Below are positions 17,793 to 61,482 of a stretch of 64,000 nt of DNA, piece by piece. Source of the DNA: an uncultured Verrucomicrobiales bacterium (GTDB lineage: Bacteria; Verrucomicrobiota; Verrucomicrobiia; Verrucomicrobiales; DEV007); NCBI GenBank assembly GCA_938091905.1, contig CALKOM010000001.1, positions 32,001-96,000 on the forward strand, given 5' to 3'. The notes beneath the pieces were generated by a model. That model saw nothing but the letters and a program-made list of their open reading frames with translations. It made no database searches and had not been told where the DNA came from. The number at the start of each line of letters is the position of its first letter. Position 1 is the stretch's first letter. Position numbers and translations under genes: made by a program.

Positions 17793-18210
17793 ATGAAGTC
17801 CTCGTTTGAATACCTGGTGACGGGATAGGTGTGGATGTCACGGCGGAGGCTGTGCGCGTCTTGGACGCCGTTGTTGCTGGTAACGACGCGGTCTCACTTA
17901 CCTATCGCGAAGTTTCGGTCTGTGCAGGCGAGTTTCTCCGTAGTGGCGACCCTCTTCCGGAATCAGCGTTCAACGCTTGTCGAGAGGCGGATGCCTTCTT
18001 GTTTGGTGCCATGGGGCTTCCCAGCGTCCGCTGGCCAGACGGTCGAGAAATGACTCCCCAGATAGATCTTCGGGAGCGCCTGGATCTGTACGCAGGCCTG
18101 CGTCCGATCTATCTCTACGCGGCAGAAGATTCTCCCTTGAAGAAACATCAAGCGGGCGACATCGGCTTCCTGTTAGTTCGTGAAAACACCGAGGGCCTCT
18201 TTGCTGCCTG
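17793..18210 (+). pseudogene. 5' fragment of an isocitrate/isopropylmalate/tartrate dehydrogenase family gene
   Basis: IPGDGIGVDV begins at 17810, right after an in-frame TGA and out of frame with ATG 17793; LRERLDLYAGLRP and VRENTEGLF present, then similarity ends near 18208. Confidence 0.8.
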
Positions 18211-18228
18211 TCTCAATGCGACACGCCT

Positions 18229-29535: not shown

Positions 29536-29635
29536 TCAGGGATATGTTACCCCAACGAGGCGCGTTTGTCCCGGTGGCAAACCAGGGAAAGATTCTTCTG
29601 GGATGCCGCTTGGGTTCAGTCCAAGGTTCACTACC

Positions 29636-32056
29636 ATGTGGAAGACCTTCTGTATCGTGTTTCTCCTAGCTCGAGGATGGCTTTCTGCGGATACGGACCA
29701 TTGGGCGTTTGAGCCTATTGAGGAACCGGAATCCAGACCAATCTCCATTGATACTTTAGTTGGGGAGAAGTTGGTGGAGAAGGGTCTTGAATGGTCTCCA
29801 GAGGCCGATAGGCGGACGCTCATTCGGCGACTCTATTTGGCCATGTTAGGAATACCTCCTAGTGTTGAGGAAATAGAAGCTTTCGTTGCCTATGAGGCAC
29901 CGAACGAAATCGCTTGGTCTCGTGTCGTGGATCGGGTGTTGGCCGACCCGCGCTATGGAGAACGGTGGGCACTGCATTGGTTAGACACCATTCGTTGGGC
30001 GGAGACGGTGGGATTCGAGACCAATGCACCTCGTCCGAATGCTTGGCACTACCGCGATTGGGTCATCGAGTCGTTCAATCGTGACCAGCCCTATGATCAG
30101 TTCATCTTTGAACAACTTGCGGGTGATACGTGTGAGGCGGATGCGGCCCTTGGCTTTCTCGTGGCCGGACCGGCAAATCTGCCGGGGCAGATTGGTCGGG
30201 ATGAATTGGCCATGCGCAGTGCGCGTCAGGATGAACTGGATGAAGTCATCCGGACGGTTAGCCAAACTTTCCTTGGGTTGACGGTGGGGTGTGCACGCTG
30301 TCATGACCATAAATTCGATCCGATTTCGGCGAAGGATTATTATGCGATGCAGGCGGTGTTTGCGGGTCTCCGCTATGGGGATCGGCGTCGACGTGGGCCC
30401 GAGAATGACGCTTGGACTGGTCGCGTCCCTTACATGACGGCGACAGTGCGAAAACTAGCAGCTGAGCTAGAGGCGTTACGGATCAGGCATGGCTTGAAGA
30501 CGCCTCTTGGAAATGTCGAGACTGTGTCGTTTGAACCCCTTCTTGCGCAAACAGTGCGCATGCGGATCAACGCGACTACGAATGGTAGTGCGGCTTCACT
30601 TTACGAGTTCGAGGTTTGGCAGGGAAAGGGTGCAGACGCGATGAATGTGGCGCTCGCTAGCCGGGGTGCCAAAGCCACGGCCTCAAGCTTCGCTTTGGAG
30701 AACCAAACTCGACACCCCGACTGCCTCAACGATGGGAGTGTGGATGAACGTCAGGCCTTTGCCTGGCGTGCAGGCGCAAATGGCCCTGCGTGGGTTCGCA
30801 TCGATCTTGTGGAACCGGCAATGCTCGAACGCGTGGTTTGGCAGCGCGGCTATAGCCAGCCTGCGGACTATGTGATTGAAGTTCAATCACCGGGAACGAC
30901 GACGTGGAATGAACTGGCCCATACTCGAGATCACTTTCCAACTCGAAGTGACACGCGCGCTGCGGCGTCGATTACCTTGGGAGATCTAACAAAGTCCGAT
31001 ATAGCAGAAATAGTCCGCTTGAACGGAGAACTTCGGCGGGCGCAGGCTGAGCTTGCCCGATTGCAAGCAGGCCCGCAGACCTATGCTGCGAGTTTCACTG
31101 ACAAGCCGGACACGACATGGCTATTGCATCGTGGAGATCCGATGCAGCGGAGAGAGGTCGTTGCTCCATCGGTGCCGGTGGCACTGGGGAGCTTGGGGGC
31201 TATCGACGAAGGTCCAGAGGTACGCCGACGGATTCGATTGGCGCGTCATCTTGCTGAGCCTAACCATCCTCTTACCGCGCGGGTGTTGGTCAATCGTGTC
31301 TGGCAATACCACTTCGGCACGGGTTTTGTCGACACGCCGTCGGATTTCGGGAAGATGGGTTCGCTTCCCACCCATCCGAGTTTGCTGGATTGGTTGGCGA
31401 GCGATTTCATGAATCATGGGTGGTCGATCAAGCACCTGCATCGTCGCATTCTCCACTCCCGGACGTTTCTTCAATCGAGCCGCCCGGATGCTCTTGCGCT
31501 TAAAGTGGATGCAGACACCCGTTTCCTCTGGCGCTTCCCCCCTCGGCGCGTGGCGGCCGAAGTTATCCGCGATTCCATGCTTGCTGCCAGCGGCAAGTTG
31601 AACCGGCGTGCGCATGGGGTTGGGTTCGATTTCTTTCGACAACAGGGAGGGCTCTCAGACTATCAGGCGCACGAAACGTTTGAGAGTGATGGTTGGCGGC
31701 GCATGGTTTACGCGCGCAAGATACGCATGCAAGCAGTCGATGTCTTTGGTGCCTTTGATTGTCCAGATGCAGGGCAAATGACTCCCAGGAGAACGCGGTC
31801 GATTACTCCAGTGCAATCGTTAGGGCTGATGAATAGCCCCTTCGCCCTTCGCCAAGCAGGGTTCTTTGCGAAGCGTATCGTGGCCGAGGTGGGAGGTGAT
31901 CCTGAGGCACAGGTGAGCCGTGCGATTGAGATCGCCTTGAATCGTCAAGCCGAGGTCGAGGAACGCAGAACTCTGGCCGCACTGGCTAGAGATCACGGCC
32001 TTGATCAGGTGTGCCGCGTGCTCTTCAACACCAGCGAATTCATCCATTTACCATGA
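29636..32056 (+). CDS. DUF1549/DUF1553 protein with inserted discoidin (F5/8)-like domain
   Basis: [25 protein letters not shown]; central ASSF...NDG...WVRIDL insert; no N-terminal PSCyt1 heme motif. Confidence 0.88.
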
Positions 32057-33495
32057 TTTCTCGCGCCGGCATCGATCTTTTAATGAATCGTCGACACTTC
32101 CTTTCGCGATCGGCAGGAGGACTGGGTGGCATCGCGCTGGCCTCGCTCATGGCAGAGGAGTCTTCACTAGAGATCGACAGCACCGATCCCTATCGACCAC
32201 GGCCGTCACATCACGAAGCGAAGGCAAAGAATGTGGTCGTGGTCTTTTGTTCTGGCGCGTTGAGCCACGTGGACACCTTTGACTACAAGCCGAAACTGAT
32301 TCGCCATCATGGGCGACCACTTCCCGGCCAGGAGAACCTGGTGTCGTTTCAAGGGCCTAACGGAAATCTCGTTCAACCACTTTGGAAATTCCGGCCGCGC
32401 GGACAGTGCGGGAAGATGATCTCTGATCTCGTGCCGCAGATTGGGGAAATGGCGGATGATCTTTGTTTTCTCCATGCCCTGACAAACAAGTCAAACACCC
32501 ATGGCCCGGCCGAGAACGTGATGAACACCGGCTTTGCCTTCGATGGTTTTCCAAGCATGGGAGCGTGGGTCAACTACGCTTTGGGAAGCACGAACGCCGA
32601 TTTGCCAGCGTTCGTCGCCATTGAGGATCCACGTGGGATGCCGCAGTCGGGTCCGAACAACTGGGCCAACGGCTTTCTTCCAGCGGCCTTTCAAGGAACG
32701 CCCTTTAGCACGACGAAGCCTATTCGTTACTTGCCTCGTCCATCTCACATTCATTCGCGGACGGATTCGGAAGCGCGTGAAGCGCTTCGTGCCCTGAACG
32801 AACGGCATGCCGAGAGATTCCCGGGAGACGAAGCCCTGGCGGCGCGGATTGCCAGCTACGAGCTTTCTGCCCGGATGCAATTGAGCGTGCCCCAAGTCGC
32901 TGATGTCTCTAGGGAATCCGCCGCGATGCGTCGTCTCTATGGAGCAGACAGTTCTAACGAGACAAAGGCAGCCTTTGCCGAGAACTGCATGCTGGCTCGA
33001 CGCCTCGTTGAGAATGGCGTTCGCTTTGTGCAATTGTTCAATGGTGCCTACGCCTCCGGGGGGAATCTGAATTGGGACGGGCACAGCCAGCTCAAGTCGC
33101 AGTACGATCGTCATGGTGACATTCTCGATCAGCCGGTCGCAGGCTTACTACAAGATCTCAAACAACGCGGCCTCTTGGAAACCACCTTGGTGGTCTTCGC
33201 CACAGAGTTCGGTCGTATGCCGATGTTTCAGGCGGGCACGTATGGCCGTGACCACAATCCTCACGGTTTCACCTGTTGGCTTGCTGGTGCGGGTGTGAAA
33301 GCACCGTTTAGCTATGGTGCTACGGACGAGTTTGGTTACGCCGCCATCGAGAAGGTTACGACAGCGCACGATTTCCATGCGACTATTCTGCACCTGCTTG
33401 GCTTGGATCATGAAGCCCTCACCGTTTATCATAATGGGATCGAACGACGCCTGACAGACGTCCACGGTCAGGTGATCCAGGAGGTCTTGGCTTAA
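32053..33495 (+). CDS. DUF1501 protein (Tat-exported)
   Basis: [36 protein letters not shown] overlap with upstream gene. Confidence 0.92.
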
Positions 33496-38376: not shown

Positions 38377-38452
38377 GGGAACGAGAGTTCACCATGTGTG
38401 GTCCTTTGACAACTTGGATACCCTTGAAGGGTTTACAGCCTCAAGAATCCTT

Positions 38453-40762
38453 ATGACCCGATTGCTCCTCATATTTCTTCTTGCCATCGTCACGACCGCG
38501 TTTGGGGACGTGCAATTCGATCGCGATATTCGCCCAATTCTTTCTGATCGCTGTTTCCAGTGCCACGGCCCCGATGAACATGATCGCCGGGGGAAACTGC
38601 GACTGGATCAGACTGGTGGAGCCGACGGCGCCTATACGAAGGGGGCGCTGAGTCCCGGCTCTCTCGCTGATAGCGAATTGTGGCAGCGAATCCACCACCA
38701 GGATCCAGATGAGGTCATGCCGCCCCCGGAGGCTGAGAAGAAGCCGCTGACGAAGACAGAACGTGCTCTGATTAGGCAATGGATCGAGGAAGGGGCCGCC
38801 TACCAAGATTTCTGGGCGTTTGTTCTACCTAAAATACCTGTTGTTGAGGTGGGGGAAGGGCAGCCGATTGATCAGTTGGTCCAGCGCCAGCTCAAGTCGG
38901 AAGGGCGTCAGCTGAGTCCAGAGGCGGATCGTCGTCGCTTGATTCGTCGGGCTACCCTCGACATCACGGGCTTACCGCCCACTCGGAAAGAGATCCGGGA
39001 ATTTCTAGCTGATACCTCAGAGGGAGCTTACGAAGCGCTTGTGGACCGTTTGCTGGCCAAGCATGCCTATGGTGAACACATGACCAAGTATTGGTTAGAC
39101 TTAGTGCGCTTCGCCGATACGAACGGCATTCATCATGATCACTTTCGCGACATGACTCCCTATCGAGATTGGGTGATTCGTTCGTTTAACGAGAATATTC
39201 CTTATGATCGCTTTGTGGTCGATCAGTTGGCTGGCGATCTGTACGAGGCCCCGTCACGCGGTCAACTGATCGCTTCAGGCTTTAATCGGCTCCATCTCAT
39301 TATCGATGTGGGAACGGCGCTTCCTGAGGAGAGTTTTACCAAGAATGTGATCGATCGTGTCACGGCTGTGGGTACGGCGTTCATGGGGCTCACGGTCCAA
39401 TGTGCTGTCTGTCATGATCACAAATATGATCCGATCACGGCGAAGGATTTTTATCAGCTCTATGCGTTTTTTAATAATCTCGATGCGAAGCCAGAGACAG
39501 GAGGTCGGAGTGGTACAGATTTCAAACGCGGCTTACAACCACCTTACATTGATCTGACGTCAACGGCGCAGGAAGCTGAATTGTCTGAACTTGCCCGGAA
39601 GATCAGGTCGGCCGAGACGGGGGAGCAACGCAAGGCTCTGGAGGAGAAGCGTGATGCTCTCCTTATGACGATCCCTGCAGCGATGGTGATGAAGGAGAAG
39701 AGTGAGGTGCGTCCCGCGCACATCTTGGTCAGAGGAGCCTATGACAATCCAGGCGAACAAGTTCAGCGGGGGACGCCGGCCTTTCTTCCACCGATGCGGG
39801 CTAAGGAGGGCAAGAAGACGCGCATGGATCTCGCTGAGTGGTTTGTTTCCAAGGAGAATCCACTGACTGCAAGAGTGGCAGTGAATCGTGTGTGGCAGCA
39901 GTTCTTTGGGGTGGGGTTAGTCAAGACATCAGAGGACTTTGGTAATCAGGGCGAATGGCCGAGTTATCCTGAGTTGATCGATTACCTAGCCGTGACGTTC
40001 ATGGAATCCGGTTGGGATACAAAGTCGCTGGTGAAAGAGATTGTGCTCTCGAAGACCTACAAGCAGGTGTCTGAAGCGAACCCAGAGGTCTTTAGGGCTG
40101 ATCCTGAGAATCGCGCTCTTGCGCGGGGTTCACGATTTCGCATGGACTCCGAGATGATTCGTGATCAAGTTCTTGTCACTAGCGGAATGCTAAATGAGGA
40201 CATGTTTGGCAAGAGTGTGAAGCCGCCGCAACCGAAGGGGCTCTGGAAATCGGTTGGGATGCCAAGCTCCTATCCTAGAGAGTATGTGCCTGATGAAGGC
40301 GACGAGATTTATCGTCGAAGTGTCTATACCTTTTGGAAACGTGGCATGCCTCCTCCGCAAATGACAATTCTCAACGCGCCTTCGCGCGAAGCGTGCATTG
40401 CTCGCCGAGAGCGGACGAACACGCCGTTGCAGGCACTGCTTCTTCTGAACGAACAGGAGTATCTGAAAGCAGCACAGCATCTTGGGTTGCAAGTTCTCGG
40501 CAATTCGAATGCCAAACGCGATGATCGCCTCACGATGGTTTACGAGACGATCACTTCGGCACTGCCGGATGCGCAAGAGAAAGCGACATTGCAAAAAGCA
40601 CTTGCCGATCTCATAGCGCTTTACCAAGGGCAACCTGAACTCGCCGAGCAACTATGTGACGGCGTGGAGTCTCCTCCAAGCGTTGAGGCGCCAGAACTCG
40701 CTGCGTGGACGATGCTAATCAGTTCGCTCTATAACCTCGATATCACCAAGACACGTCAATAG
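38453..40762 (+). CDS. PSCyt1 / DUF1549 / DUF1553 protein
   Basis: [34 protein letters not shown]. Confidence 0.92.
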   Translation: MTRLLLIFLLAIVTTAFGDVQFDRDIRPILSDRCFQCHGPDEHDRRGKLRLDQTGGADGAYTKGALSPGSLADSELWQRIHHQDPDEVMPPPEAEKKPLTKTERALIRQWIEEGAAYQDFWAFVLPKIPVVEVGEGQPIDQLVQRQLKSEGRQLSPEADRRRLIRRATLDITGLPPTRKEIREFLADTSEGAYEALVDRLLAKHAYGEHMTKYWLDLVRFADTNGIHHDHFRDMTPYRDWVIRSFNENIPYDRFVVDQLAGDLYEAPSRGQLIASGFNRLHLIIDVGTALPEESFTKNVIDRVTAVGTAFMGLTVQCAVCHDHKYDPITAKDFYQLYAFFNNLDAKPETGGRSGTDFKRGLQPPYIDLTSTAQEAELSELARKIRSAETGEQRKALEEKRDALLMTIPAAMVMKEKSEVRPAHILVRGAYDNPGEQVQRGTPAFLPPMRAKEGKKTRMDLAEWFVSKENPLTARVAVNRVWQQFFGVGLVKTSEDFGNQGEWPSYPELIDYLAVTFMESGWDTKSLVKEIVLSKTYKQVSEANPEVFRADPENRALARGSRFRMDSEMIRDQVLVTSGMLNEDMFGKSVKPPQPKGLWKSVGMPSSYPREYVPDEGDEIYRRSVYTFWKRGMPPPQMTILNAPSREACIARRERTNTPLQALLLLNEQEYLKAAQHLGLQVLGNSNAKRDDRLTMVYETITSALPDAQEKATLQKALADLIALYQGQPELAEQLCDGVESPPSVEAPELAAWTMLISSLYNLDITKTRQ

Positions 40763-40768
40763 ATCGTC

Positions 40769-42208
40769 ATGTTACACGACATCAGAGAAGAACCTAACAT
40801 GCTGCAGGCGCGGCGGCAGTTTCTGAAGACATCAGGGATGGGTCTAGGCGCGGCCACGCTTGGTTCGCTACTGCCTCAGAATGGCCACGCTCGCGAGATC
40901 AGCGTGGGTTCTGCCAAGGCCAAACACGTCATCTTCCTTTTCATGGCAGGTGCTCCGAGTCAGGTCGATTTGTTCGATTACAAGCCTGATTTGCAGGAAC
41001 GCTTCCGCGAGCCGTTGCCTCCTAGCATTAGCCAAGGGCAACGTGTGACTGCGATGACCAAGGGGCGTCAGCAGTTGGTTGCGCCAACGATGTTTGGCTT
41101 TAAGAAGCGGGGCAAGAGCGGTCTCTGGATGAGCAATTTGTTGCCGCGCCTTGGCGAGGTGGCCGATGAGCTTTGCCTCATCAAGTCGATGCATACGAAT
41201 GCAATAAATCATGACCCTGGCAAAACGTTTATTTGCACGGGAAACGAGCTTCCTGGAAAGGCGAGCATGGGTGCGTGGTTGAGTTATGGGTTGGGCTCGA
41301 TGAATCGAGATTTACCTGATTTCGTGGTGCTGAATTCCGCTTATTGGACAGGGGGAACTCGCAACACCCAGGCGCTTTATAGCCGCTTGTGGGGCAGTGG
41401 GTTTCTGCCTTCGAAGCACCAAGGGGTAGCCTTCCAGACGTCGGGAGATCCCGTGCTGTTCCTTTCTAATCCGAAAGGCGTTGACCAAAGCGTGAGGCGA
41501 AGAATGCTCGATGCGGTGGGCGCATTGAATGAGAAACATTACCGCGAGATCGGTGATCAGGAGATTCAAACGACGATCGCCCAGCAGGAGATGGCTTTCC
41601 GCATGCAGGCTTCCGTGCCTGAGTTGACCGAAGTATCAGGCGAGCCGGAAAGTGTGACGGATCTCTATGGTCCCGAGGTGAAAAAGCCAGGCTCGTTTGC
41701 GAGAAACTGCTTACTTGCGCGGCGCATGGTGGAGCGGGGAGTGCGATTTATCCAAGTCTTTCATCGAGGGTGGGATCACCACACGATCTTGCCCAAGCAG
41801 TTCCCAGGTCAGTGTTTCGACGTCGACCAGCCTTCAGCAGCCTTGATTACGGATCTCAAGCAACGTGGTCTTCTGGAGGATACGATGATTGTCTTTGCCG
41901 GCGAGTTTGGGCGGACGGTGTTCTGTCAGGGAAAGCTGGAGCGCACGGATTACGGTCGTGATCATCATCCGCGTTGTTTCACTGCCTGGATGGCTGGTGG
42001 CGGAATCAAGGGTGGAATTTCTTACGGTGAAACCGATGAGTTTAGCTACAACGTGGCGAAAGATCCGGTCTCGGTGCGTGACCTTCACGCGACGATGCTG
42101 CATCAGTTAGGCATCGATCACGCGAAACTGACCTTTCCGTTCCAAGGGCTGGATCAGAAACTGACGGGTGTCGAGGCGTCGCGGGTGGTGCGAGAGATTC
42201 TGTCCTAA
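40769..42208 (+). CDS. DUF1501 protein (Tat-exported)
   Basis: ARRQFLK; GAPSQVDLFDYKP, GWDHH, GEFGRT, GRDHHP. Confidence 0.92.
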   Translation: MLHDIREEPNMLQARRQFLKTSGMGLGAATLGSLLPQNGHAREISVGSAKAKHVIFLFMAGAPSQVDLFDYKPDLQERFREPLPPSISQGQRVTAMTKGRQQLVAPTMFGFKKRGKSGLWMSNLLPRLGEVADELCLIKSMHTNAINHDPGKTFICTGNELPGKASMGAWLSYGLGSMNRDLPDFVVLNSAYWTGGTRNTQALYSRLWGSGFLPSKHQGVAFQTSGDPVLFLSNPKGVDQSVRRRMLDAVGALNEKHYREIGDQEIQTTIAQQEMAFRMQASVPELTEVSGEPESVTDLYGPEVKKPGSFARNCLLARRMVERGVRFIQVFHRGWDHHTILPKQFPGQCFDVDQPSAALITDLKQRGLLEDTMIVFAGEFGRTVFCQGKLERTDYGRDHHPRCFTAWMAGGGIKGGISYGETDEFSYNVAKDPVSVRDLHATMLHQLGIDHAKLTFPFQGLDQKLTGVEASRVVREILS

Positions 42209-44164: not shown

Positions 44165-46009
44165 CTACTCTATGGTGACAATGTCACCAAGCTTGAGCAC
44201 ACTGTAGAAGTGCTTTACGTCGGACCACGGCATGCGAACGCATCCGTGAGAGGCGGGGTAGCTAGGCACATTGGGCGAATAATGCAGGCCAAAGTCGCTG
44301 CAACTCAGTCGCATGAAGTATGGCATGGATGAGCCATAGATGGACGAGTTGTGGTGGCGGTGCTTGTTCGTGATTACGTAGGTTCCCTTGGGTGTGCGGT
44401 TTCCGCGTTTACCAGAAGAGACTCGAGATGAGCTGACGGCTTCACCATCCTTGTAAAGCGTGGCGCGTTGGCTTTTCAGAGAGACGGTCACCGTGCGTGA
44501 TTTGTCATTGGCTTCTCGTCCCAAGATCAACTGCATGATAGGAACATTGTGGCGTTCGGCTGCGAGGGCCACTGCATAGCGACGAAAGCGGGCGGAGTAT
44601 GCGTTCCGCTCAGCCCCATGGCTAATGAGATCGCTAACAGTGCTCTGCTGTTCCGTTAGGGCAGCCAGCATGAGGTAGGTGAGATTACGATCACGCTTGA
44701 GATAGTAGGTCGTCTTGGCGTCGCCTTCAAAGTAACCGAGGAAGGCTTTACTTGGCGGATCTTGAAGTCGAAGGTTTGGGTCGGCACCCATTTTTAATAG
44801 ACGTTTGGTCACGCGGTCCTGTCGGGCAGCGATGGAGAGGCCGAGCACACGTTGCTCAATCGAGGTAAATTCGTTCGGATCAGTGCCTTGATCGAGGAGG
44901 AGATTTACGCACTCCGGGCTGCCACTGAAGATAGCGAGTTCTAACAAGCCTTCTTTGTCTGTCCATTCTTTCTGATGATTGTGGTAGTGAGTAGCAATGA
45001 TTTGAGCGCCAGCACCGTGGCCACATTGGATCGCCCGGCGAAGTGTTCCCGTCGGATGAGCTCCTGCTTCGAGTAGCTCGATGACGCAACCCGTCTCAGC
45101 GAGATCCATGGAATGATTGATTAGAGTAATTCCAGATTGAGGATGCTTGGCATTGGCACTCACACCGTGATCCAAGAGGTGCCGAACGGTTTCGGTGTCA
45201 CTTTGTTCGATGGCTGTTAGAAGGTAGAGAGCGTGTTGCTGGATGTCGACTTTGGCCCCGCTTTCTAATAGAAGCTTTACGGATTCCGCGCAGCTGTCCT
45301 TGATAGCGAAGTCTAGGGGTGTTTCGCCCTCCTCTTCACTTGCGATGTTTGGGTTGGACTTGTTCTTTCCGGACAGAAGAGCTCGCGCGACGGTGAGATC
45401 ATCTTGACGGATAGCGTAGTGCAAAGGGGTGCGGCCTGTTTTGTCGCGGACATCAACATCGATGTTGGGGTGAGTTAGGAGAAGCTTTAACAACGTGCCA
45501 TCTCGCTCCTGGGTCGCTTTGAGCAACGCATGAATTTCATTCTCCTCACCGCCCTGCTTGAGTGCGACGTTAGGATTCTGGATGCGGGGAAGTAGTTTCT
45601 TAACGACGTCAAGATTACCTAACTGAATCGCATGGGCGAGTGGGGGGACGCCGTGTTCATCTGTTTGGTCGCAGTCGACGCCTGGCTGTTCCGTGAGAAA
45701 GTTCGTAATGGCTTGCTCTTTCTGAATAATGGACGCGATGAGCGGTGTCTTGCCATCGTCGCTCAGACCATTGAGGGGAACCCTCGCGGTGTGTAAGAGG
45801 GTGACCATTTCCAGGTCCTTCATCTTGATCGCGTTGTGAACACTGCGGGGTATTTGCTCGATCCCCGCTTCCCTGAGTTTTCGCATGGCCTTGTACCTGG
45901 GCATGCTGTCCCACAGAACCATGGAGCCAAGTGGGATCAGAAGACCAGCGACCCAGAAGGCGAAGTAGTGCAGTTTCTTGGGCTGTGTCTCTTGATCAGT
46001 CACGGGCAA
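44165..46009 (-). CDS. Membrane-anchored ankyrin-repeat protein fused to an L,D-transpeptidase (YkuD) domain
   Basis: N-terminal TM; repeats GKTPLI, GVPPLA, GRTPLHYA, GETPLDFA; C-terminal GLHY...ASHGCVRM. Confidence 0.9.
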   Translation of the reverse strand: MPVTDQETQPKKLHYFAFWVAGLLIPLGSMVLWDSMPRYKAMRKLREAGIEQIPRSVHNAIKMKDLEMVTLLHTARVPLNGLSDDGKTPLIASIIQKEQAITNFLTEQPGVDCDQTDEHGVPPLAHAIQLGNLDVVKKLLPRIQNPNVALKQGGEENEIHALLKATQERDGTLLKLLLTHPNIDVDVRDKTGRTPLHYAIRQDDLTVARALLSGKNKSNPNIASEEEGETPLDFAIKDSCAESVKLLLESGAKVDIQQHALYLLTAIEQSDTETVRHLLDHGVSANAKHPQSGITLINHSMDLAETGCVIELLEAGAHPTGTLRRAIQCGHGAGAQIIATHYHNHQKEWTDKEGLLELAIFSGSPECVNLLLDQGTDPNEFTSIEQRVLGLSIAARQDRVTKRLLKMGADPNLRLQDPPSKAFLGYFEGDAKTTYYLKRDRNLTYLMLAALTEQQSTVSDLISHGAERNAYSARFRRYAVALAAERHNVPIMQLILGREANDKSRTVTVSLKSQRATLYKDGEAVSSSRVSSGKRGNRTPKGTYVITNKHRHHNSSIYGSSMPYFMRLSCSDFGLHYSPNVPSYPASHGCVRMPWSDVKHFYSVLKLGDIVTIE

Positions 46010-53072: not shown

Positions 53073-53132
53073 GCAGAAATTCGCTTTTGTTTTTACGGGA
53101 GATTGAGGACATTCTGGGGTTTCTTCGACATC

Positions 53133-54605
53133 ATGTTTAGAATCCCAGGCGAACCCGGTAAAGATATGTGTGACGGCCATCTTGGCCCCACAAGACGTGA
53201 CGTACTCCGTATCGGCGGTGCGGGAATGATGGGACTGTCGCTAGGGTCGATGCTCCAGCTGAAAGCTCAAGCTGCTGCTGGTGGCGTTCATACGGGTGGG
53301 CCTGGTTGGGGTAAAGCTAAAAGCGTTATCTTGGTGTATCTGCAAGGTGGCCCCAGTCATCTTGATCTTTGGGATCCCAAGGAGAATGTTCCTAACAATG
53401 TGCGTAGTGAATTCAAGTCGATCCCTACAAAGATCCCTGGGACGCATTTCACCGAACTGTTACCCAAGCTGGCTAAGGTCAATGATAAGATGACCATGAT
53501 ACGGTCCATGAGCTACACGCCGAATGGACTCTTCAATCACACAGCTGCCATTTATCAAATGATGACGGGTTACACGACGGATAAGGTGAGTCCGTCAGGT
53601 CAGTTGGAGCCGCCGAGCCCGAAAGACTTTCCTAACTTTGGTTCTAACGTCGTAAGATTGAAGCCCTCTGATGAGCCGATGCTTCCTTTCGTGATGTTAC
53701 CTCGCCCACTCCAGGAGAGCAATGTAATCGGTAAGGGCGGGACGGCAGGGTTCCTCGGGAAATCCTACGATCCTTATACCATGTATCCTGCTGGGGACGA
53801 CATGGACATGACAAAGATGGCGCGCCTCAAGATTGATGACTTGCAGCTTCGTCCAGATGTCTTCTCGGTGCGCCTGCGTCGTCGTGCGTCTCTTCGTGCG
53901 GCGATAAACAAACAGATGCCCATCATTGATAAGGCGGTGGCGGACTACAATTTGAACGAGTATTATGATCGAGCGTTGAATCTCATCGTTTCTGGTCGTG
54001 CGCGGGAGGCATTCAATCTTGATGCCGAATCCGAGTCGCTCCGCGAACGTTATGGGCGGAACACTTTCGGGGACAGTTGCCTCATGGCGCGTCGATTGGT
54101 CGAGGCGGGAACGCGCGTGGTCGAAGTCATTTGGCCGAAGGTCGCGAACTCCGACAACCATTCCTGGGACGTCCATGTGGGATTGTCTAAGCGCATGAAA
54201 GATCAATCCGCGCCGATGTTAGATGCTGGCTTTTCGACATTGATTGATGACCTCGATGAGCGCGGACTTCTGGACGAGACCTTGGTTGTTGGTGTCGGTG
54301 AGTTTGGTCGTAGCCCTGAGAAAGGCGTTTCTACCAGTGGAAATAACAACAGTGCAGATGGCCGTGATCACTGGCCTTACTGTTACACCGCCTGCATTGC
54401 AGGGGCCGGGATCAAGCGGGGCTACGTTCACGGGAAGTCCGACAAGACGGGCTCGGCACCACTAGAAGATCCTGTTCATCCTGGAGAACTTTTGGCAACG
54501 CTGTATCATGCATTCGGGATCGATCCCGAGAGCATGGTGATGAATCACCTCAATCAGCCACGTGAGCTGGTCAAAGCGAAAGCAGTGACCAGTCTGTTCG
54601 CATAG
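53133..54605 (+). CDS. DUF1501 protein (Tat-exported), no adjacent DUF1553 partner
   Basis: [37 protein letters not shown]. Confidence 0.92.
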
Positions 54606-56021: not shown

Positions 56022-59000
56022 CTAACGCAGAAACGGTTTGCCTTGCTGATAGAGCGATAGGCGGCCTTTCAGCTCCTTTATCAACCTGTCATTACGCTGT
56101 TTCCGTGCCATGGCGAGCGCACGCTGCGTGAGCTGACTGGCCTTCTCAAACTGCTGGTTACTGGCCAGAGCAGTGGCAGCCGTATCGATGGCATGGGGAT
56201 TGTTTGAGAATCGTTGGAGGATCTTCTGAGCCAAGGACAGAGCACGTCTGGGATTGCGGAAAGCCGGGTTGCGACTGGTCGAGAGTACCCAGCAAAGCTG
56301 ATTGAGTGTTTGGAAATCATCGGGCTTCACTTTGAGTGCGAATTCGTAGATCGCGGCTGCTTGATCATCTTGTCCAAGACTCTGGTAGGTGTTCCCCAAC
56401 TGTACTAAGACATCGTGTTGTTTTGGAGCCCGCTTGAGGAAAGTCTGGAGAATGGTTGCTGCTTCCTTTCCGCGTCGGAGTGCGGTAAGCGTGCGGGCAT
56501 GGGCGAGCGTCGCTTTGGAGTGTTGGGGATTCAGCTTCGTTGCCCGTTGGTAGAATGGAAGAGCGATCTTGGGCAAGGCATTCTCCAAGCGATAGGTTTC
56601 TCCTAACATATACTGAATATCGGCCTCTTGATAACGCCGTTTCGCAGCTTCCCCCTCGTCAACCTTGGCGAGCGCCTCTTCGAGATAGCGTCGAGCATGT
56701 TCGTTGTAGCCGCCCTCGAGGTAAACTCGAGAAATGGCCACCGGATGGGTGATAAAGTGATCATTTGACCAGCGACCTGGGAATGGAATGGCATGGTCAG
56801 GATGTTTGGAGACGGGTTGTTGTAGGCGCTGGGTCTGTGCTAGGATCGAGTCTGCCGAGACGGCTCCTTTGGTGAAGCTTACAAGACTTCCACGATGCCA
56901 AAGGAAGCTACTAGGCAGAGGGAGGGCTTCCTGTTTGTAGAGAGTGTTGCGCTGGGCTTGATCGAGAGCCTCGACCATTTCTTGACTGGCACGGCCGGAA
57001 GCGAAGGGCCAATTGAGCTTCCTTAGACGTTGCTCCAGTGCCTTGGGACTTGGGGCTTCCGTACCTTCGATTTTTGACTGAGCCTCTTCGATGTTCAGGG
57101 CGACGACTTGAATACCCGCGTTCTGAATGGCCTTATGTTGCGTTGATAGGAGTTCCATTTCCTTAAGGCAAGGCTGGCACCAGGATGCCCACAGAAGGGT
57201 GAGGGTGAGTGGTTGGGTGTCAATGGTGGCGGTGCTACCTGACCAGGTGCGGTAGCGAAGCGTCGGTGCAGAACGGGGCTCCGATAGATAGGTCTCCATC
57301 GTTGGAGGTGGACTCGGTAGCGTCAACGGTGTTGCTTTCAATGCAATGGCAGCTTGTTTCGCGGCGGTCGCTTTGCCTGTCCCCTGACGAAGGTGCCATC
57401 GGCCGGAGGGTTTCGCTTCGAAAGTCTCGCCTGCCGTCTGACCTGGCCATGTCACCTGAATCTTTGTTGTTGTGGCTTTGCTACCGAGCCCGAAGTGAAG
57501 CCACTTGCTGGACTGGCTTAGGAAGCCATCGCCTGCGGTGACCTGGCGCGTGAGCTTGGTCCTATCCGAAAGAGTTATGGTGGCGATGGCACCGATAGCA
57601 TCGCGTGGCGTCCCTTTGCTGGGATCACCTTCGAGGCGAAGGGCAAGTGTTTTAGCTTTTGTTAGGTAGTCGTTTCGGAGCAGACGCACTCGAGGTCCGG
57701 TGCGATTGCTCACCCAGAGATCCAGATCGCCATCTCGATCCCAGTCGGTGATGGCAAGGGCGCGGCCGTCGTCTGGCAAACCAAAGCCAGACATCAGGGA
57801 GACGTCGGCGAAGCGCTTCCCACGAGTATTGAGAAAGACACTATTTGGTTCGCGACCTGAGAAGGAATTGCCGTTTCGGATGCGCGTGGCGAGATCTTGC
57901 CAGGCATCGAGGTAGCCTTGGCCCGGAGTGGTAGTTTCTTTGCTAGGACTTTGCGACACGACCTGCCGCCAGTAGAAGCCTCACAAATCACCGGTGTCTT
58001 CCTGAGTGATGAAGCCATTGGCCACAATCAAATCTTGCCAACCGTCATTGTTGAAGTCGGCAAAGGCAGATCCCCAGGCCCAGCGTCCTTGGGTGACAGC
58101 AGCGGACACGCTGACATCCTCGAAGCCCTTGCCAGGTCCGAGATTGTGGAAGAGGGAGTTTCCTCTGGCGTGCCGGACAAATAGATCGCGGGTGGTGGTG
58201 TCTTCGTTTGCGAGGAAACGGGCCTGCTTGGCGATTCGATTACCTGCGGAGGAGAACATGTTGCTAACATAGATGTCAAAAAATCCATCGTTGTCGTAAT
58301 CACCCCAGGCGGCGGACATTCCGGCAGCGATGTCGAGCGTACCGCTACTCTCGGCCACGTCAGTGAATCGAATTTGGTCTCGGACCTTGTCTTGGCGGTA
58401 GAGATTGTTGCGACCGAAATCATTGGCGACATAGAGATCGAGATCGCCGTCCCGATCATAGTCTGCCCACGCTGCTGCATAGCTGTAACGCGTGTTGTTC
58501 GCATCGAGCCCCACTCGTTGGGTCACGTGGCGAAAGCGGAACTCGCCGTCATTTCGCAACAGCGAATTACGGCCGCCATTGGTGGCATCTTGATACGGCA
58601 CGGGACGAGCTAGGGCCACGTTTCTATCCACGTGCCCACGACGATCGTAGCAGGCTGCAAAGATGTCTAGATCGCCGTCCTGATCGTAGTCTGCGGCAGC
58701 GAGTGAGTAGGGGACCGCAAAGGGGAGTACCTCGGCAGAGCGCACGGTGAATCGTCCCGAGCCATCGTTCTCTTGGATAACGAGGCCTTCGGCTACGGAA
58801 ACGACAAGGTCCTGATCGCCGTCGTTGTCGAGATCAATGAAGAGGGCACCTCGGCTAGTTTCTAACCAATCTACTCCGGCCGCAGTAGCGACATCGCCTG
58901 CCGTGCCATCGGCGCGTGCAAGGAACAAACGGTTGGGCAAGCCGCCACTCTGACACACGTAGAGATCCTCCATACCATCACCATTGGCATCGCCAACGGC

Positions 59001-59768
59001 CAAGCCGTTCCATCCCCCCACTTTGAGGCCGACGCGCGTATCGAGTCGAGCCAGCCAATGATCCAGACCGTGAGCGAGTTGGTTTTGAAATGCAGGATCG
59101 CGACCGACCACTGTGGCTGTCGCTTCTGTGAAGAGAGCGCCTCGCGTTGATGTGGTGATGACCTCTTCGTAGTCATCGACAATGAAACGTTCCAAGGCGA
59201 GTGACGTTCCCGTCCGTTTCCAGCTGCATGACCAAGTGCTATTGACTTGTAAGTCCTTGCCATCGGAGGTTTCACCATCTAACCGAATTTCTAAGCGGGT
59301 TTCCACCCGTGTTGCGGAAGTTTCCACGCCGACCGTCTTAAACTTTACATTGAGTGGGCCTGTACTTAGTCCCTTGGTTAGACTCAGAACTGCTTGGGTC
59401 CAGCCACTGGGCCCATGAAGCTTGTCCGATGCGTCGCGACCGGCGCGGTGGACTTGCAGGACATCGTCGATGTATGCCTGGTCGCGCTTCGTCGGACGTA
59501 GCGGGGCGCCGCGAAAGTTGTGAGCAGCAATTCCTTCTAATCCGGCTGCTTGAGTGCCAGAGGCGAGCGTTTCTTTGAGGGCTTCAAGGCGCGAGCTGGT
59601 GACTTCGGCAGCTTGTTCGCTATCCCAGCCGCCATGACTAGGATCGTACCTTGGGGTGGCAATACCAGTACCCGGCACTGCAGGGGGGCTTGTTTGTGCA
59701 ACGGCGCTAGGTCCTCCTAGGAGGATCGCGATGAAAGACAGGAGGGGAACGCGCCACATGGTGAACAT
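56022..59768 (-). CDS. Secreted FG-GAP/CRTAC1-like beta-propeller - ASPIC/UnbV - TlpA-like thioredoxin - TPR protein with in-frame TGA at codon 596 (candidate selenoprotein; otherwise two ORFs, 57981-59768 and 56022-57959)
   Basis: Both ORFs share one frame (...EDTGDL*GFYWRQVVSQSP...); DxDxDGDxD repeats on both sides of the TGA; GFLSQSS..LHFGLG; WCQPC; TPR helices; SECIS-like hairpin after the TGA. Confidence 0.75.
57945..57983 (-). promoter_or_regulatory. Putative bacterial SECIS element
   Basis: mRNA reads UGA-GGCUUCUACUG-[GCGGCA GGUCG UGUCGC]-AAAGUCCU: 11-nt spacer, 17-nt stem-loop with a G-initiated loop, and a possible lower stem. Confidence 0.65.
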
Positions 59769-59810: not shown

Positions 59811-60203
59811 TTACCGGCCCTCGTCCTGAGCTTTCTCAATGGCGCTCATCAATTCCTCATACTCGTCCCGATCCAGCTTCATCTTCTTGTCTGCCAAATG
59901 GGCAGCCAAGGCGCGTGAGAAAGACCCATCGAAGAACGTCTTCACGACATGATTGAGCATCTTGGCACCAGTCTTGGCACGAGCAGGCCGAGGCATGTAG
60001 AGGTAGTTCCTGCCCTCTTTGCGACGCTTCACAAGCCCTTTATCCTCTTCAAGGATTTGCAGCATTCGCCGGATTGCCATGGGCGTTGGAGCCTTCGGCA
60101 GTTTTGATTGAATTTCGAGCACAGAGGCCTCACCTACTTCATAGAGGATATCGAGGATCTGACGTTGTCGCCGAGAGAGATGCTTCTGGAAGTCAGTATT
60201 CAT
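59811..60203 (-). CDS. BlaI/MecI/CopY family transcriptional repressor
   Basis: LSRRQRQILDILY, winged HTH, VVKTFFDGS motif; start taken at ATG 60203. Confidence 0.9.
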   Translation of the reverse strand: MNTDFQKHLSRRQRQILDILYEVGEASVLEIQSKLPKAPTPMAIRRMLQILEEDKGLVKRRKEGRNYLYMPRPARAKTGAKMLNHVVKTFFDGSFSRALAAHLADKKMKLDRDEYEELMSAIEKAQDEGR

Positions 60204-60229
60204 GGCAGCCGAGGAGTTTGAAGGATCCA

Positions 60230-60245
60230 CGCTATGAAAGTAGCG
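60230..60245. promoter_or_regulatory. Candidate BlaI-type operator palindrome
   Basis: CGCTA-TGAAAG-TAGCG, 26 nt upstream of the repressor ATG; matching half-site CGCTACTTT at 60283-60291. Confidence 0.45.
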
Positions 60246-60396
60246 AGACTTATTCGATGGTTCAATGAAAAACCGAGGATGGCGCTACTTTTCTCTTTCC
60301 GCCCTGGAGATGAGAAGATGGCTAAATTCACACAAAGAGCTTGGAGCGGTCACGAGCCACGCTAGAGTCCGTATCTAGGGGCTAGAAGCCACATTC

Positions 60397-61482
60397 ATGA
60401 ATCTTGACGAAACATTTCCGGAAGAACTTTCCCAACAGCAAGTCATGGCCATGGTGGCGGCTGCTGAAGCGCGAAAGTCGAAGATGGTCGCGCTCATGAT
60501 CGCGATTGGTGCCCATGTGGTGTTGATCGGTGGGCTTCTCTTCGTTGTCTTTGGCGAAGTCCTGGAACGTCAGCCTAATCTCATTATTTCAGCGCCCTAC
60601 ACGCCGTTGGAACAGTTGAAACCGGCCAAAAAAGATTTGGTTCAGGTGAAGGCGCAGAAGCCTGCAGCGCCCTCCGCATCCATGAGCAAGGTGATCGTTG
60701 CTCAAAATGTGGTGAGCGCCATTCCAATGCCTATTGTGGAGGAGTTCGACGAGGATACCGTCAACTTCGGGACCGGGTTTGGTGAGGGCATGGGTTCAGG
60801 GATGGGTGGATTTGGTGGTCAAGGTCGAGGCGGTTCCTTCTTTGGGACGCCCGCTGCGGGAAACTCTATCATTCTTGTCATTGATGTTTCTACGAGCATG
60901 GATCGAGAGTGCGGAGAAAGTGGTATCGCGGCGATTCGTGCAGAGATCGAACGGACGATCAACGCGCTGACGCCGTCTTCTCGGTTCAACATTATCTGCT
61001 TTGGTAATCTTGCTGATGGTTTCAAAAAAGGGCCAGTGGGTGCCTCTAGCAAGAACAAGAAAGCGGCCATTACTTTCATGAAAGATTACTATACCCGAGA
61101 AGGGTTCACTCGCTCGCGGACCGGCAACAACTACTCGGATAAAGAAATGCCTTATGTGCCTATCCGGCCTGATGATTTCAAAGCAATGAAAGGCACTTCG
61201 GGTGGCTCCCGATATGACTTGGCGCTGGTTGCGGCCTTTGAGCAGGCGCCGGAGACGATTTTTCTCCTTACTGACGGCCAGCCAAGTACCCGGTTGGATG
61301 GACAGACGCTCTCTGACCGCGATATTCTGAACATCGTTAAAAAAGCGGGCCGTCGCACCGGCGGCAGCAAACGAACTGTGGTCAATGGTATTAGTGTAAA
61401 CGGTATTGCGAAAGGTTTCCTGAGGGACATCGCAAAAGCTTTCCGTGGCACTGTCAAAGTAATTGAGCCAAAGAAGCTCTAG
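60397..61482 (+). CDS. Membrane-anchored von Willebrand factor A domain protein
   Basis: TM anchor, Gly-rich linker, MIDAS-like DVSTSM, FLLTDGQP. Confidence 0.85.
   Translation: MNLDETFPEELSQQQVMAMVAAAEARKSKMVALMIAIGAHVVLIGGLLFVVFGEVLERQPNLIISAPYTPLEQLKPAKKDLVQVKAQKPAAPSASMSKVIVAQNVVSAIPMPIVEEFDEDTVNFGTGFGEGMGSGMGGFGGQGRGGSFFGTPAAGNSIILVIDVSTSMDRECGESGIAAIRAEIERTINALTPSSRFNIICFGNLADGFKKGPVGASSKNKKAAITFMKDYYTREGFTRSRTGNNYSDKEMPYVPIRPDDFKAMKGTSGGSRYDLALVAAFEQAPETIFLLTDGQPSTRLDGQTLSDRDILNIVKKAGRRTGGSKRTVVNGISVNGIAKGFLRDIAKAFRGTVKVIEPKKL

Follow-up and report, generated by a model that had tools for sequence, protein, structure and literature searches.

A long reading frame interrupted by a single in-frame UGA

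On the minus strand of the window (the whole 64-kb stretch of DNA that was analysed), an open reading frame of 595 aa extends from 59768 to 57981 and ends in a TGA at 57983-57981. Beyond this codon the same frame continues as GFYWRQVV and remains open for 652 codons to a TAG at 56024-56022, such that one recoded stop would give a product of 1248 residues. The whole gene (56022..59768, minus strand) would consist of 1247 sense codons and, at codon 596, a UGA proposed to be read as selenocysteine (Sec). The downstream part is otherwise listed as a separate frame of 645 aa, with a GTG start at 57959-57957. Nowhere else in the window does a single TGA part two open stretches of such length (603 and 652 codons); in the remaining TGA-split cases they span 103-318 codons and look non-coding. 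The original prediction had described the interrupted 1248-codon frame in these terms, and had expected gene callers to divide it in two; the sequence agrees with the former, and public records indeed carry the halves as a 'VCBS repeat-containing protein' and an 'ASPIC/UnbV domain-containing protein'.

Comparison with a related locus, L001, shows that purifying selection acts on both halves (pN 0.22 and pS 0.75 upstream of the TGA; pN 0.29 and pS 0.80 downstream), and synonymous sites are saturated between the window gene and its nearest relative. A gene for a BlaI/Penicillinase_R-type repressor (59811..60230, minus strand; Pfam 70.5 bits) lies 43 nt upstream on the same strand. A BlaI-type gene also precedes the copies at L001 and L003, but none of the 15 other copies with an upstream open reading frame that were scanned; it is possible that this repressor regulates the selenoprotein gene in the sub-clade of the window alone. 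Elsewhere in the window, gene fragments occur at 17831-20076.

Domain architecture of the joined protein

All domains described here are encoded on the minus strand. The translation begins with a putative signal peptide (residues 1-24; 59697..59768), which has a hydrophobic core and an AVA-Q cleavage-like site; among the 26 orthologues of the Sec form with a complete 5' end, a hydrophobic run is seen at the N terminus in 23 and a lipobox-like motif in 9. The following domain (about residues 45-235; 59064..59636) carries a conserved DGW-[DE]-[ST]-E motif and could be assigned to no known family: it had no Pfam or NCBIfam match, and its matches in the ESM Atlas were unnamed Verrucomicrobiota clusters only. 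Next is a seven-bladed FG-GAP propeller region (57669..59051; Pfam FG-GAP_3 134.2 bits in 6 stretches, FG-GAP 71.2 bits), in which the D-x-[DN]-x-[DN]-G blade motifs are found at residues 260, 312, 360, 436, 490, 571 and 675. Blade motifs 1-6 are upstream of the UGA, whereas the seventh (57749-57702) is at residue 675 and therefore falls after codon 596; the Sec site itself comes after blade 6 and before blade 7, in a conserved DL-U-[SG]-F-[FY]-W-R-Q-V-V segment. An ASPIC/UnbV domain (residues 724-778; 57435..57599) matches Pfam PF07593 with 55.6 bits against a cut-off of 23.4, so that the last blade and this domain both lie 3' of the TGA, as had been claimed. Once the UGA is read through, FG-GAP repeats and UnbV_ASPIC are present in one chain, each above its cut-off.

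A putative TlpA/ResA-like thioredoxin-fold domain follows (56889..57380), with a CQPC motif at 57179-57168 (C864 and C867). The WCQPC motif had been predicted correctly, although the coordinates given for it (57168-57179) cover CQPC only because its tryptophan is encoded at 57182-57180. Pfam scores for this region were just below the cut-offs (AhpC-TSA, 25.1 vs 26 bits; Redoxin, 20.7 vs 26.6 bits) and those of NCBIfam TlpA/ResA models far below (NF047696, 33 bits vs 230), whereas PDB searches returned ResA (E 7.5e-6) and TlpA (E 9.3e-6). The domain shares with TlpA/ResA-type proteins W-C-x-P-C, a glutamic acid three residues later and a downstream P-[ST]-S-F-L; its motif retains both cysteines, and the Sec is located about 270 residues upstream, in another domain. 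The protein ends in a TPR array (residues 1016-1224; 56097..56723), for which five Pfam models exceeded their cut-offs (TPR_19, 41.4 bits; TPR_14, 37.8; TPR_8, 34.1; TPR_1, 34.0; TPR_2, 29.6).

Among solved structures, the propeller matched cartilage acidic protein 1 (CRTAC1; PDB 9etn_A, E 3.7e-16), in which FG-GAP repeats are likewise followed by ASPIC/UnbV in one secreted chain. CRTAC1 has neither Sec nor a TlpA-like domain nor TPRs. Because the last blade of CRTAC1 aligns to both blades 6 and 7, a Sec-bearing segment of about 85 residues has no counterpart in the alignment.

The UGA is conserved across three phyla

Among shorter homologues, the 120 best (61-100% identical) share one end point, ...DL at the residue preceding the UGA, and some of them are found on contigs of up to 1.9 Mb. 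In species-representative genomes, 40 further copies of the gene were recovered from 30 loci, each with TGA at the site (57981..57983 in the window) and a continuing frame. Together with the window these make up 41 interrupted copies of the DL-x-SFFWRQVV motif, in which the stop was TGA in 41 of 41 and never TAA or TAG. The conservation spans Verrucomicrobiota, Planctomycetota and two Acidobacteriota. In 28 copies the frame runs on past the TGA for 500 codons or more; for the 12 copies with a shorter downstream frame, five loci were checked and have frameshifts elsewhere, and two open reading frames reach the contig end. Up to three copies were found in one locus and four on one contig, and homologue clusters also occur in ocean survey data.

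TGA also serves as an ordinary stop in the window, where it ends 7 of the 31 Pfam-supported open reading frames; UGA is therefore not reassigned. Among 5.8 billion clustered proteins, no protein of near full length was more than 54% identical over residues 440-800, and hence the closest relatives exist solely as split records.

A hairpin of the E. coli fdhF type follows the UGA

Immediately 3' of the UGA is a candidate bacterial SECIS (57953..57980, minus strand), which consists of an 11-nt spacer (57980-57970), a 5' arm GCGGCA (57969-57964), a loop GGUCG (57963-57959) and a 3' arm UGUCGC (57958-57953), the two arms forming 6 bp. The published bacterial SECIS model requires a loop of 3-9 nt whose first two positions contain G, a 4-16 bp stem, a UGA-to-loop distance of 16-37 nt and a minimum free energy (MFE) of -7.5 kcal/mol or lower (PMC13188914, Fig. 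2A legend); the window hairpin lies within these bounds, with a 5-nt loop starting GG, a 6-bp stem and 17 nt between UGA and loop. MFE reached -7.5 or lower in 41 of 41 copies for the UGA plus 45 nt and in 25 of 41 for the hairpin alone. The loop reads GGUCG in 29 of 41 copies, and GU is kept in every variant.

Across the copies, 98% of 246 cells of the helix are paired, with double changes in 11 cells at two of the six helix pairs (pair 27-37: AU 22, GU 12, GC 4, CG 2, UA 1; pair 29-35: AU 37, GC 4). None of 500 shuffles reached this level of pairing and covariation, slid controls paired in 9-69%, and RNAalifold recovered the same helix. The hairpin also encodes the conserved peptide WRQVVS, so its conservation is in part a matter of the protein; within the helix, synonymous codons are nevertheless pinned (TCG at Ser+9 in 34 of 34, GTG at Val+8 in 32 of 32, no AGR at Arg+5), whereas Ser+11 and Pro+12, just outside it, use all codons. 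The case for the hairpin is convincing only comparatively, because the window's own 91-nt stretch folds no better than shuffles (z = 0.32). The single non-Sec homologue compared at the DNA level (L026, with GGA at the site) keeps a degraded hairpin with 4 of 6 pairs (37 bits).

The element closely resembles that of E. coli fdhF. Aligned at the UGA, fdhF reads UGA-CACGGCCCAUC-GGUUGCA-GGUC-UGCACC and the window gene UGA-GGCUUCUACUG-GCGGCA-GGUCG-UGUCGC; in both, the in-frame UGA is followed after 11 nt by a short helix that closes with GCA...UG on a GGUC loop, and they share a GCAGGUC core. A bulged U is important in the fdhF SECIS, whereas the window helix is fully paired and lacks it. The proteins are unrelated: the Sec of the window protein has no adjacent molybdopterin site, and the product would be exported by a Sec-type signal peptide. 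From these sequence features we identify the 6-bp, GGUCG-loop hairpin as a bacterial SECIS of the fdhF type, and the mechanism of decoding is presumably the same.

Selenium-related genes in related loci

In the 64-kb window, no selA, selB, selC or selD was found: there were no tRNAs and no Rfam hits, and no sel family among the 38 open reading frames scanned. Related loci do carry signs of selenium use. At L078 a tRNA-Sec lies 1.5 kb downstream of the gene (detected by ARAGORN; Rfam 67.1 bits vs a cut-off of 47), and L038 contains selD (TIGR00476, 385.9 bits vs a cut-off of 125). At L013 a DUF3179 gene has an in-frame TGA that would yield U-P-P-C, making it a second UxxC selenoprotein gene. 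Reading through the TGA doubles the Pfam score of this gene, and the loop of its hairpin is GGUCU.

Residues at the Sec site and the CxxC motif

Uninterrupted homologues with the architecture of the joined frame exist. In 93 homologues a sense codon keeps the frame open across the motif, and the residue at the Sec position was serine in 23, glutamic acid in 16, aspartic acid in 14 and cysteine in 12, with other residues in 28 (among them alanine in 9, glycine in 7 and histidine in 5, as well as tyrosine, asparagine, glutamine and arginine). The predominance of residues other than cysteine would be atypical for a catalytic Sec.

The CxxC motif was intact in 28 of 28 full-length Sec forms, whereas only 28 of the 93 non-Sec homologues retained it (3 of 12 cysteine forms and 25 of 81 others). 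Conservation of W863, C864, P866 and E870 is 85% or more among Sec forms and does not exceed 45% among non-Cys forms. A cysteine at position 643 or 644 was found in 23 of 28 Sec forms versus 17 of 81 others; the window protein itself has no Cys643, reading REPNSV, and its clade has an E-P-x-S motif at 640-643 in common with the histidine forms. Corrected for relatedness, the association of Sec with CxxC gave p of about 0.25, and it cannot reach significance because only three independent Sec/non-Sec pairs exist. In raw counts the co-retention of Sec and CxxC is striking, and it may point to a redox relay.

Discussion

We consider it highly likely that 59768-56022 on the minus strand encodes one selenoprotein with Sec at codon 596, and the product is predicted to be an exported protein of about 1220 residues and about 130 kDa. 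The original prediction, a single exported chain reading ...DTGDL-U-GFYWRQ... with a SECIS directly after the UGA, is borne out by the invariant TGA, the common end point of all 120 shorter homologues and the covarying hairpin, and it gains further support from the cysteine homologues, from purifying selection on both halves and from the use of Sec and selenium at related loci. By analogy with bacterial Sec decoding in general, SelB-GTP-Sec-tRNASec would bind the hairpin on the translating mRNA, and Sec would be inserted instead of translation being terminated.

If the UGA were instead the genuine end of a secreted six-blade fragment, with translation starting separately eight codons on at the GUG at 57959, two polypeptides would be made from a conserved split gene, as gene callers and public records have it; GTG is found at that position in 32 of 41 copies. 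A plain stop should, however, drift among TAA, TAG and TGA, and termination here would sever blade 6 from blade 7 of a single propeller. In every case the two parts share one frame and no spacer separates them, and 93 homologues cross the motif on a sense codon. The downstream part moreover has a periplasm-type TlpA-like domain but, as first noted from the translation, no signal peptide of its own, and its GTG, comprising the last loop base and the first two bases of the 3' arm, is buried in the conserved helix with an AGG 2 nt upstream as its sole possible ribosome-binding site, much as the original prediction had it; we therefore regard this reading as very improbable. Downstream hairpins can stimulate stop-codon read-through in some systems, and a near-cognate tRNA could in principle insert an ordinary amino acid (such as tryptophan, cysteine or arginine) at the UGA with the help of the hairpin, or UGA could have been reassigned. 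We give this very little weight, as TGA is an ordinary stop in the window, the spacing and loop of the hairpin are those of a SelB-type SECIS, cysteine occupies the site in 12 homologues, and tRNA-Sec, selD and a second UxxC selenoprotein gene are found in related loci. A nonsense mutation, pseudogene or sequencing error in this assembly might have been suspected, given that TGA is one substitution from the TGC/TGT of cysteine homologues and that gene fragments exist elsewhere in the window (17831-20076). This explanation is refuted, its probability being negligible, by the same TGA in 40 other copies from 30 loci in three phyla, by the shared end point and by purifying selection on the downstream half.

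What the Sec does is far less settled than its presence. In a relay scheme, which we put forward tentatively, Sec596 would act as a redox-active nucleophile outside the cytoplasm and would be recycled by the CxxC of the same chain, with Cys 643 or 644 joining in its recycling in most members of the family, but not in the window protein; a CcdA/DsbD-type thiol reductase of the membrane might in turn return the CxxC to its reduced state, and the TPRs could dock a partner or substrate. Sec could instead be inserted but uncoupled from any relay: it might bind a metal or metalloid, or serve a structural or regulatory purpose, in a CRTAC1-type binding protein whose TlpA-like domain acts on other targets, a role that we judge rather unlikely. 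We know of no enzymatic activity of CRTAC1, the solved relative; in uninterrupted homologues a possible ligand (Asp, Glu, His or Cys) or serine often takes the place of Sec, the E-P-x-S motif of the window's clade recurs in histidine forms, and the window protein lacks the candidate resolving Cys643. Against this, alanine and glycine are unsuited to a ligand site, Sec forms retain every thioredoxin active-site hallmark whereas most non-Sec forms have lost them, and redox proteins make up the majority of known bacterial selenoproteins (PMC13188914, section 7).

The original prediction had considered the architecture new as a characterised selenoprotein family. This holds for the catalogues: the 119 prokaryotic selenoprotein families compiled in 2026 (PMC13188914) do not include this one, NCBIfam has no model for it, and it does not appear in the deep-Sep and BSepDB texts or in those of their supplements that were available. 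Similar genes had, however, already been listed as candidates in Table S9 of Kim et al. 2016 (PLoS One 11:e0151883, PMC4807772). Every entry there stands in the annotation as a pair of neighbouring genes with an in-frame UGA between them, three of four are bSECISearch positive, and the closest uninterrupted match has glycine at the site, as does L026; two planctomycetes (P1 and P2) listed with such genes are reported to have full selA/B/C/D sets. The domain description is the same, and on that description alone these candidates very probably belong to the family of the window gene. In the passages of that paper around 'selenoprotein', most of its S2 Text and Table S9, the genes are listed only, with no discussion, alignment or description of architecture.

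Gene callers split every member of this family, the halves being annotated as 'VCBS repeat-containing' and 'ASPIC/UnbV domain-containing', and yet it is widespread in Verrucomicrobiota and Planctomycetota. The window gene, the first member to be analysed, may represent a large family of selenoenzymes that are exported and frequently encoded more than once per genome in these two phyla and some Acidobacteriota; we hold this possibility with some reserve. Such enzymes would carry Sec between propeller blades, serviced by an in-chain TlpA-like CxxC, and would be extracytoplasmic redox machines complete in themselves, built on a scaffold that in animals is known solely from the matrix protein CRTAC1; the family would have switched repeatedly among Sec, Cys and non-redox residues, with decay of the thioredoxin active site where Sec is absent. 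The likeness of the SECIS to its counterpart in fdhF may be close enough for read-through to be assayed directly in E. coli. With at least 40 copies in 30 loci, the family is a common one. For marine and soil Verrucomicrobiota and Planctomycetota, both the demand for selenium and the selenoproteome have therefore been under-counted. A Sec placed outside the thioredoxin fold, in the propeller of a roughly 130-kDa exported protein that also has a CxxC domain, is an unusual setting, and one that could reveal new extracellular selenium-dependent chemistry.

An in-frame TGA separates two halves of what is very probably a single propeller gene

The ORF of 595 codons at 59768..57981 (minus strand) stops at a TGA (57983-57981), beyond which the same frame reads GFYWRQVV... 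and stays open until a TAG at 56024-56022; recoding of this one stop yields a frame of 1248 codons, as originally predicted. The start codon of the 645-aa ORF, a GTG, was likewise seen to sit within a hairpin. When the joined product was searched against Pfam, FG-GAP repeats were recovered in six stretches (FG-GAP_3, 134.2 bits), along with a UnbV_ASPIC domain at residues 724-778 (55.6 bits), TPRs at residues 1016-1224 and weak AhpC-TSA/Redoxin matches, just under the Pfam cut-offs, around the CQPC at residues 864-867; this thioredoxin-like part was also similar to ResA and TlpA (E ~1e-5). The N-terminus reads as a signal peptide, judging from its sequence, and the N-terminal domain matched unnamed clusters only in the ESM Atlas.

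Seven blade motifs of the form D-x-[DN]-x-[DN]-G lie at residues 260, 312, 360, 436, 490, 571 and 675, which puts codon 596, the TGA, between the sixth and seventh blades of a single propeller; the last blade and the UnbV_ASPIC domain lie past the TGA, in agreement with the prediction. Cartilage acidic protein 1 (9etn) is the sole relative of the propeller with a solved structure; its last blade aligns both to blade 6 and to blade 7 of the window protein, so that the segment bearing the putative selenocysteine (Sec) has no counterpart there. In public records, proteins from Verrucomicrobiales bacteria that cluster with the two halves at full or near-full identity carry the names 'VCBS repeat-containing protein' and 'ASPIC/UnbV domain-containing protein'; their origin assigns the window to that order, and the separate names show that public annotation splits the gene, which had been expected of gene callers.

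The TGA is conserved across three phyla

In order to find near-length relatives, residues 440-800 were searched against 5.8 billion clustered proteins. Thousands of uninterrupted relatives were found, many with the identical FG-GAP, UnbV, AhpC-TSA and TPR order, and among the 120 matches listed identity never exceeded 54%. A search for shorter proteins returned matches 61-100% identical, mostly of 570-660 residues, with FG-GAP repeats only and on contigs of up to 1.9 Mb; all 120 of the shorter homologues listed terminate in ...DL, exactly at the TGA of the window.

At the DNA level, a single genome was scanned for each species; 80 loci were obtained, among which tblastn with residues 521-700 revealed another 40 copies of the gene, spread over 30 loci, that bear the motif DL-stop-[SG]-F-[FY]-W-R-Q-V-V. 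Tabulation of codon 596, which had been proposed as a check on the prediction, gave TGA in 41 of 41 interrupted copies including that of the window, with TAA and TAG in none, and the frame continues past it; the TGA is therefore not peculiar to this genome, and its conservation in relatives indicates that the stop is not an accident. The 30 loci comprise 8 from Verrucomicrobiia/Verrucomicrobiales, 20 from Planctomycetota and 2 from Acidobacteriota (Thermoanaerobaculia and Blastocatellia). Two or three copies occur in nine loci, and two loci on the same contig (L011 and L021) hold four together. A sense codon, GGA (Gly), occupies the site in an Acidobacteriaceae homologue, L026.

In 28 copies the open frame runs on past the TGA for 500 codons or more. 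As to the 12 shorter copies, the five loci checked (all long-read assemblies) are frameshifted elsewhere, and two ORFs reach the contig end. An apparent second TGA ends the ORFs of these five loci (L003, L005, L025, L065 and L078); these stops were rejected as further Sec codons, being products of the frameshifts. In each of the five MAG assemblies the family gene shifts frame once, away from the TGA site, probably through an indel error of long-read assembly.

When the window gene was compared with its nearest relative, L001, synonymous sites were saturated (pS of 0.75 in the N-terminal half and 0.80 in the C-terminal half), whereas non-synonymous differences were only 0.22 and 0.29, respectively, which argues that the part past the TGA is a translated, constrained protein.

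A conserved hairpin follows the TGA

The hairpin GCGGCA-GGUCG-UGUCGC begins eleven nucleotides past the UGA. Across the 41 copies (alignment A1), 98% of 246 helix cells are paired, and two of the six pairs covary, one occurring as AU 22, GU 12, GC 4, CG 2 and UA 1, the other as AU 37 and GC 4. In none of 500 shuffles did pairing or covariation come up to the observed values; with the partner strand slid by 1-3 columns, pairing fell to 9-69%, and RNAalifold independently recovered the identical helix. The helix region also codes for a conserved peptide, WRQVVS, which accounts for some of its conservation. Within the helix, synonymous sites are pinned (TCG in 34 of 34 for Ser+9, GTG in 32 of 32 for Val+8), and Arg+5 is always CGN, with a covarying third base; at Ser+11 and Pro+12, directly outside, all codons are used. 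In the window copy by itself, the 91-nt stretch folded no better than shuffles (z = 0.32).

The bacterial SECIS (bSECIS) model, as described in section 5 of a 2026 review (PMC13188914), calls for a loop of 3-9 nt with a G in its first two positions, a stem of 4-16 bp, a UGA-to-loop distance of 16-37 nt and an MFE of -7.5 or lower. The element agrees with every constraint, with a 5-nt loop starting with GG, a stem of 6 bp, a UGA-to-loop distance of 17 nt and, in all 41 copies, an MFE no higher than -7.5. The formate dehydrogenase H gene of E. coli, fdhF (read from the K-12 genome), has UGA, 11 nt, then GGUUGCA-GGUC-UGCACC; its spacing and its GCAGGUC...UG core are identical to those of the window element. 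When a covariance model of the hairpin was run over 1.05 Mb, the only matches besides the 41 sites used to train it were L026 (37 bits) and one at chance level (E 0.81). In L026, the single sense-codon homologue compared as DNA, the helix is degraded, with 4 of 6 pairs retained. The assignment of the window gene as a real selenoprotein gene is well supported.

Selenium machinery and other selenoprotein genes

The window yielded no tRNA, no Rfam family and, among 38 ORFs scanned, no sel gene. TGA serves there as an ordinary stop, terminating 7 of 31 Pfam-supported ORFs. With the exception of the family gene, TGA sites in the window with at least 100 open codons on both sides look non-coding, and a SECIS-like scan of the window returned only the target and one antisense match at 60798.

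Three independent signs of selenium use are present in related loci. In a Planctomycetia MAG, the family gene is followed at a distance of 1.5 kb downstream by a tRNA-Sec (L078:11221-11320, plus strand; ARAGORN; Rfam RF01852, 67.1 bits against a threshold of 47); the ORFs surrounding this tRNA gene, past the family gene at 9.9-15.7 kb of the locus, include no sel genes. In a Planctomycetota MAG, a Cys-type selD (L038:1588-2919, minus strand; TIGR00476, 385.9 bits against 125) is found ~3 kb upstream of the family gene. In a Pirellulaceae MAG, a DUF3179 gene (L013:8462-9316, plus strand), 2.4 kb downstream of the FG-GAP family gene, contains an in-frame TGA (8687-8689) giving SF-U-PPC, a UxxC motif; read-through raises its Pfam score from 49.9 to 97.8 bits, and a hairpin, GGAGUU-GGUCU-AACUCC, lies 15 nt past the UGA. 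Its sequence marks it as another selenoprotein gene, and its family is catalogued: DUF3179 with UxxC is listed in Table 1 of the 2026 review (PMC13188914). The two planctomycetes for which Kim et al. 2016 (PMC4807772) list genes like that of the window have complete selA/B/C/D sets according to the same paper. A YeeE/TsuA-like ORF in L009 was rejected as a selenoprotein candidate, since the GGCTSGH motif of this ORF contains a Cys and its frame is uninterrupted by TGA.

Elsewhere in the window, two abutting gene fragments at 17831-19140 (plus strand), a 172-aa ORF matching only positions 13-142 of 348 of Iso_dh and a 277-aa sugar kinase ORF with SBD_N from position 151 onward plus NBD_C, suggest a deletion, two paired pseudogenes or a join made during assembly. 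Of a GFO/IDH/MocA oxidoreductase, the ORF at 19384-20076 (plus strand) encodes just the C-terminal domains and lacks the N-terminal Rossmann part. Three PSCyt/PSD1 (DUF1549/DUF1553) plus DUF1501 pairs and one lone DUF1501, a tandem typical of PVC bacteria, occupy 25754-33495, 38396-42208 and 53103-54605, and point to Verrucomicrobiota or Planctomycetota as the source of the window. A UvrA-like protein of 1868 aa (5277-10883, minus strand) contains ABC ATPase modules in duplicate along with a pair of UvrA interaction domains; standard UvrA is about half as long. At 44165-46009 (minus strand), ankyrin repeats are fused to a YkuD L,D-transpeptidase catalytic domain.

Genomic neighbourhood

In the window, a gene for a BlaI-type repressor precedes the family gene by 43 nt. 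L001 and L003 also have this repressor upstream, and it was found upstream of none of the 15 other copies with an upstream ORF scanned. The arrangement of this repressor with an adjoining divergent VWA-like gene is conserved between window 59811-61482 and L001 4221-5913. Other neighbours vary, and include Laminin_G_3 and PEP-CTERM proteins, 2OG-Fe oxygenases, FG-GAP/ASPIC paralogues, two di-haem peroxidase-like proteins and one SCO1; neither a recurrent partner gene nor DsbD/CcdA was found among the neighbours of the copies examined. Uninterrupted FG-GAP/UnbV_ASPIC paralogues adjoin Sec-type genes at L008:484-4290, L011:10096-12507, L022:11826-13172 and L041:11495-13459; these genomes hold an expanded, clustered set of family members. 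Genes for di-haem peroxidase-like (CCP_MauG, DHOR) and SCO1/SenC proteins stand beside three Sec-type genes (L020:2903-4834, minus strand; L023:2967-4352, plus strand; L004:13824-14564, minus strand); such neighbours, which are not recurrent, might point to a peroxide-related or copper/thiol-related setting.

The Sec site and its possible role

Among 93 uninterrupted homologues bearing the motif, the residue at the Sec position is Ser in 23, Glu in 16, Asp in 14, Cys in 12, Ala in 9, Gly in 7, His in 5, Tyr, Asn and Gln in 2 each, and Arg in 1. Such a mix is unusual for a catalytic Sec. The main alternative to the redox relay proposed below is that Sec acts as a metal ligand or in some other non-catalytic role. 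The residue at 596 was also compared with other cysteines of the chain: the CxxC is intact in all 28 forms with Sec at 596, in 3 of 12 with Cys and in 25 of 81 with another residue, and a Cys at 643 or 644 is present in 23, 7 and 17 of these, respectively. Few positions combine conservation of at least 85% in Sec forms with no more than 45% in non-Cys forms, and W863, C864, P866 and E870 belong to these. Position 643 of the window protein itself is Ser, not Cys.

We propose, tentatively and at somewhat less than even confidence, that these conservation patterns reflect a relay from Sec, possibly by way of Cys643, to the CxxC within an exported protein, in which the CxxC would be re-reduced as is usual for TlpA-type domains. 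The Sec forms do not make up one clade, and 3 (well-supported branches only) to 7 changes are needed on the tree (FastTree, 121 sequences, trait column removed). When the association of Sec with the CxxC or with Cys643 was tested by independent pairs, 3 contrasts only were obtained, all in the expected direction or neutral, a number at which significance is unreachable; because there are only three phylogenetically independent contrasts, the relay is something that we infer.

Literature searches on FG-GAP, ASPIC or VCBS selenoproteins and on bacterial UnbV/ASPIC returned nothing relevant, although supplements and other papers may hold more. No such family is mentioned in the main texts of GOS 2008, ISME J 2016 and Biomolecules 2022, in the main texts and available supplements of deep-Sep and BSepDB, or among the 119 families in Table 1 of the 2026 review (PMC13188914), and NCBIfam has no model for it. 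One earlier sighting, very probably of the same family, was located in Table S9 of Kim et al. 2016 (PMC4807772), where Gly is aligned in the closest match and bSECISearch is positive for three of four; the text passages of that paper that were consulted do not discuss the Table S9 entries. The window gene belongs to a family that is uncatalogued and uncharacterised, yet widespread.
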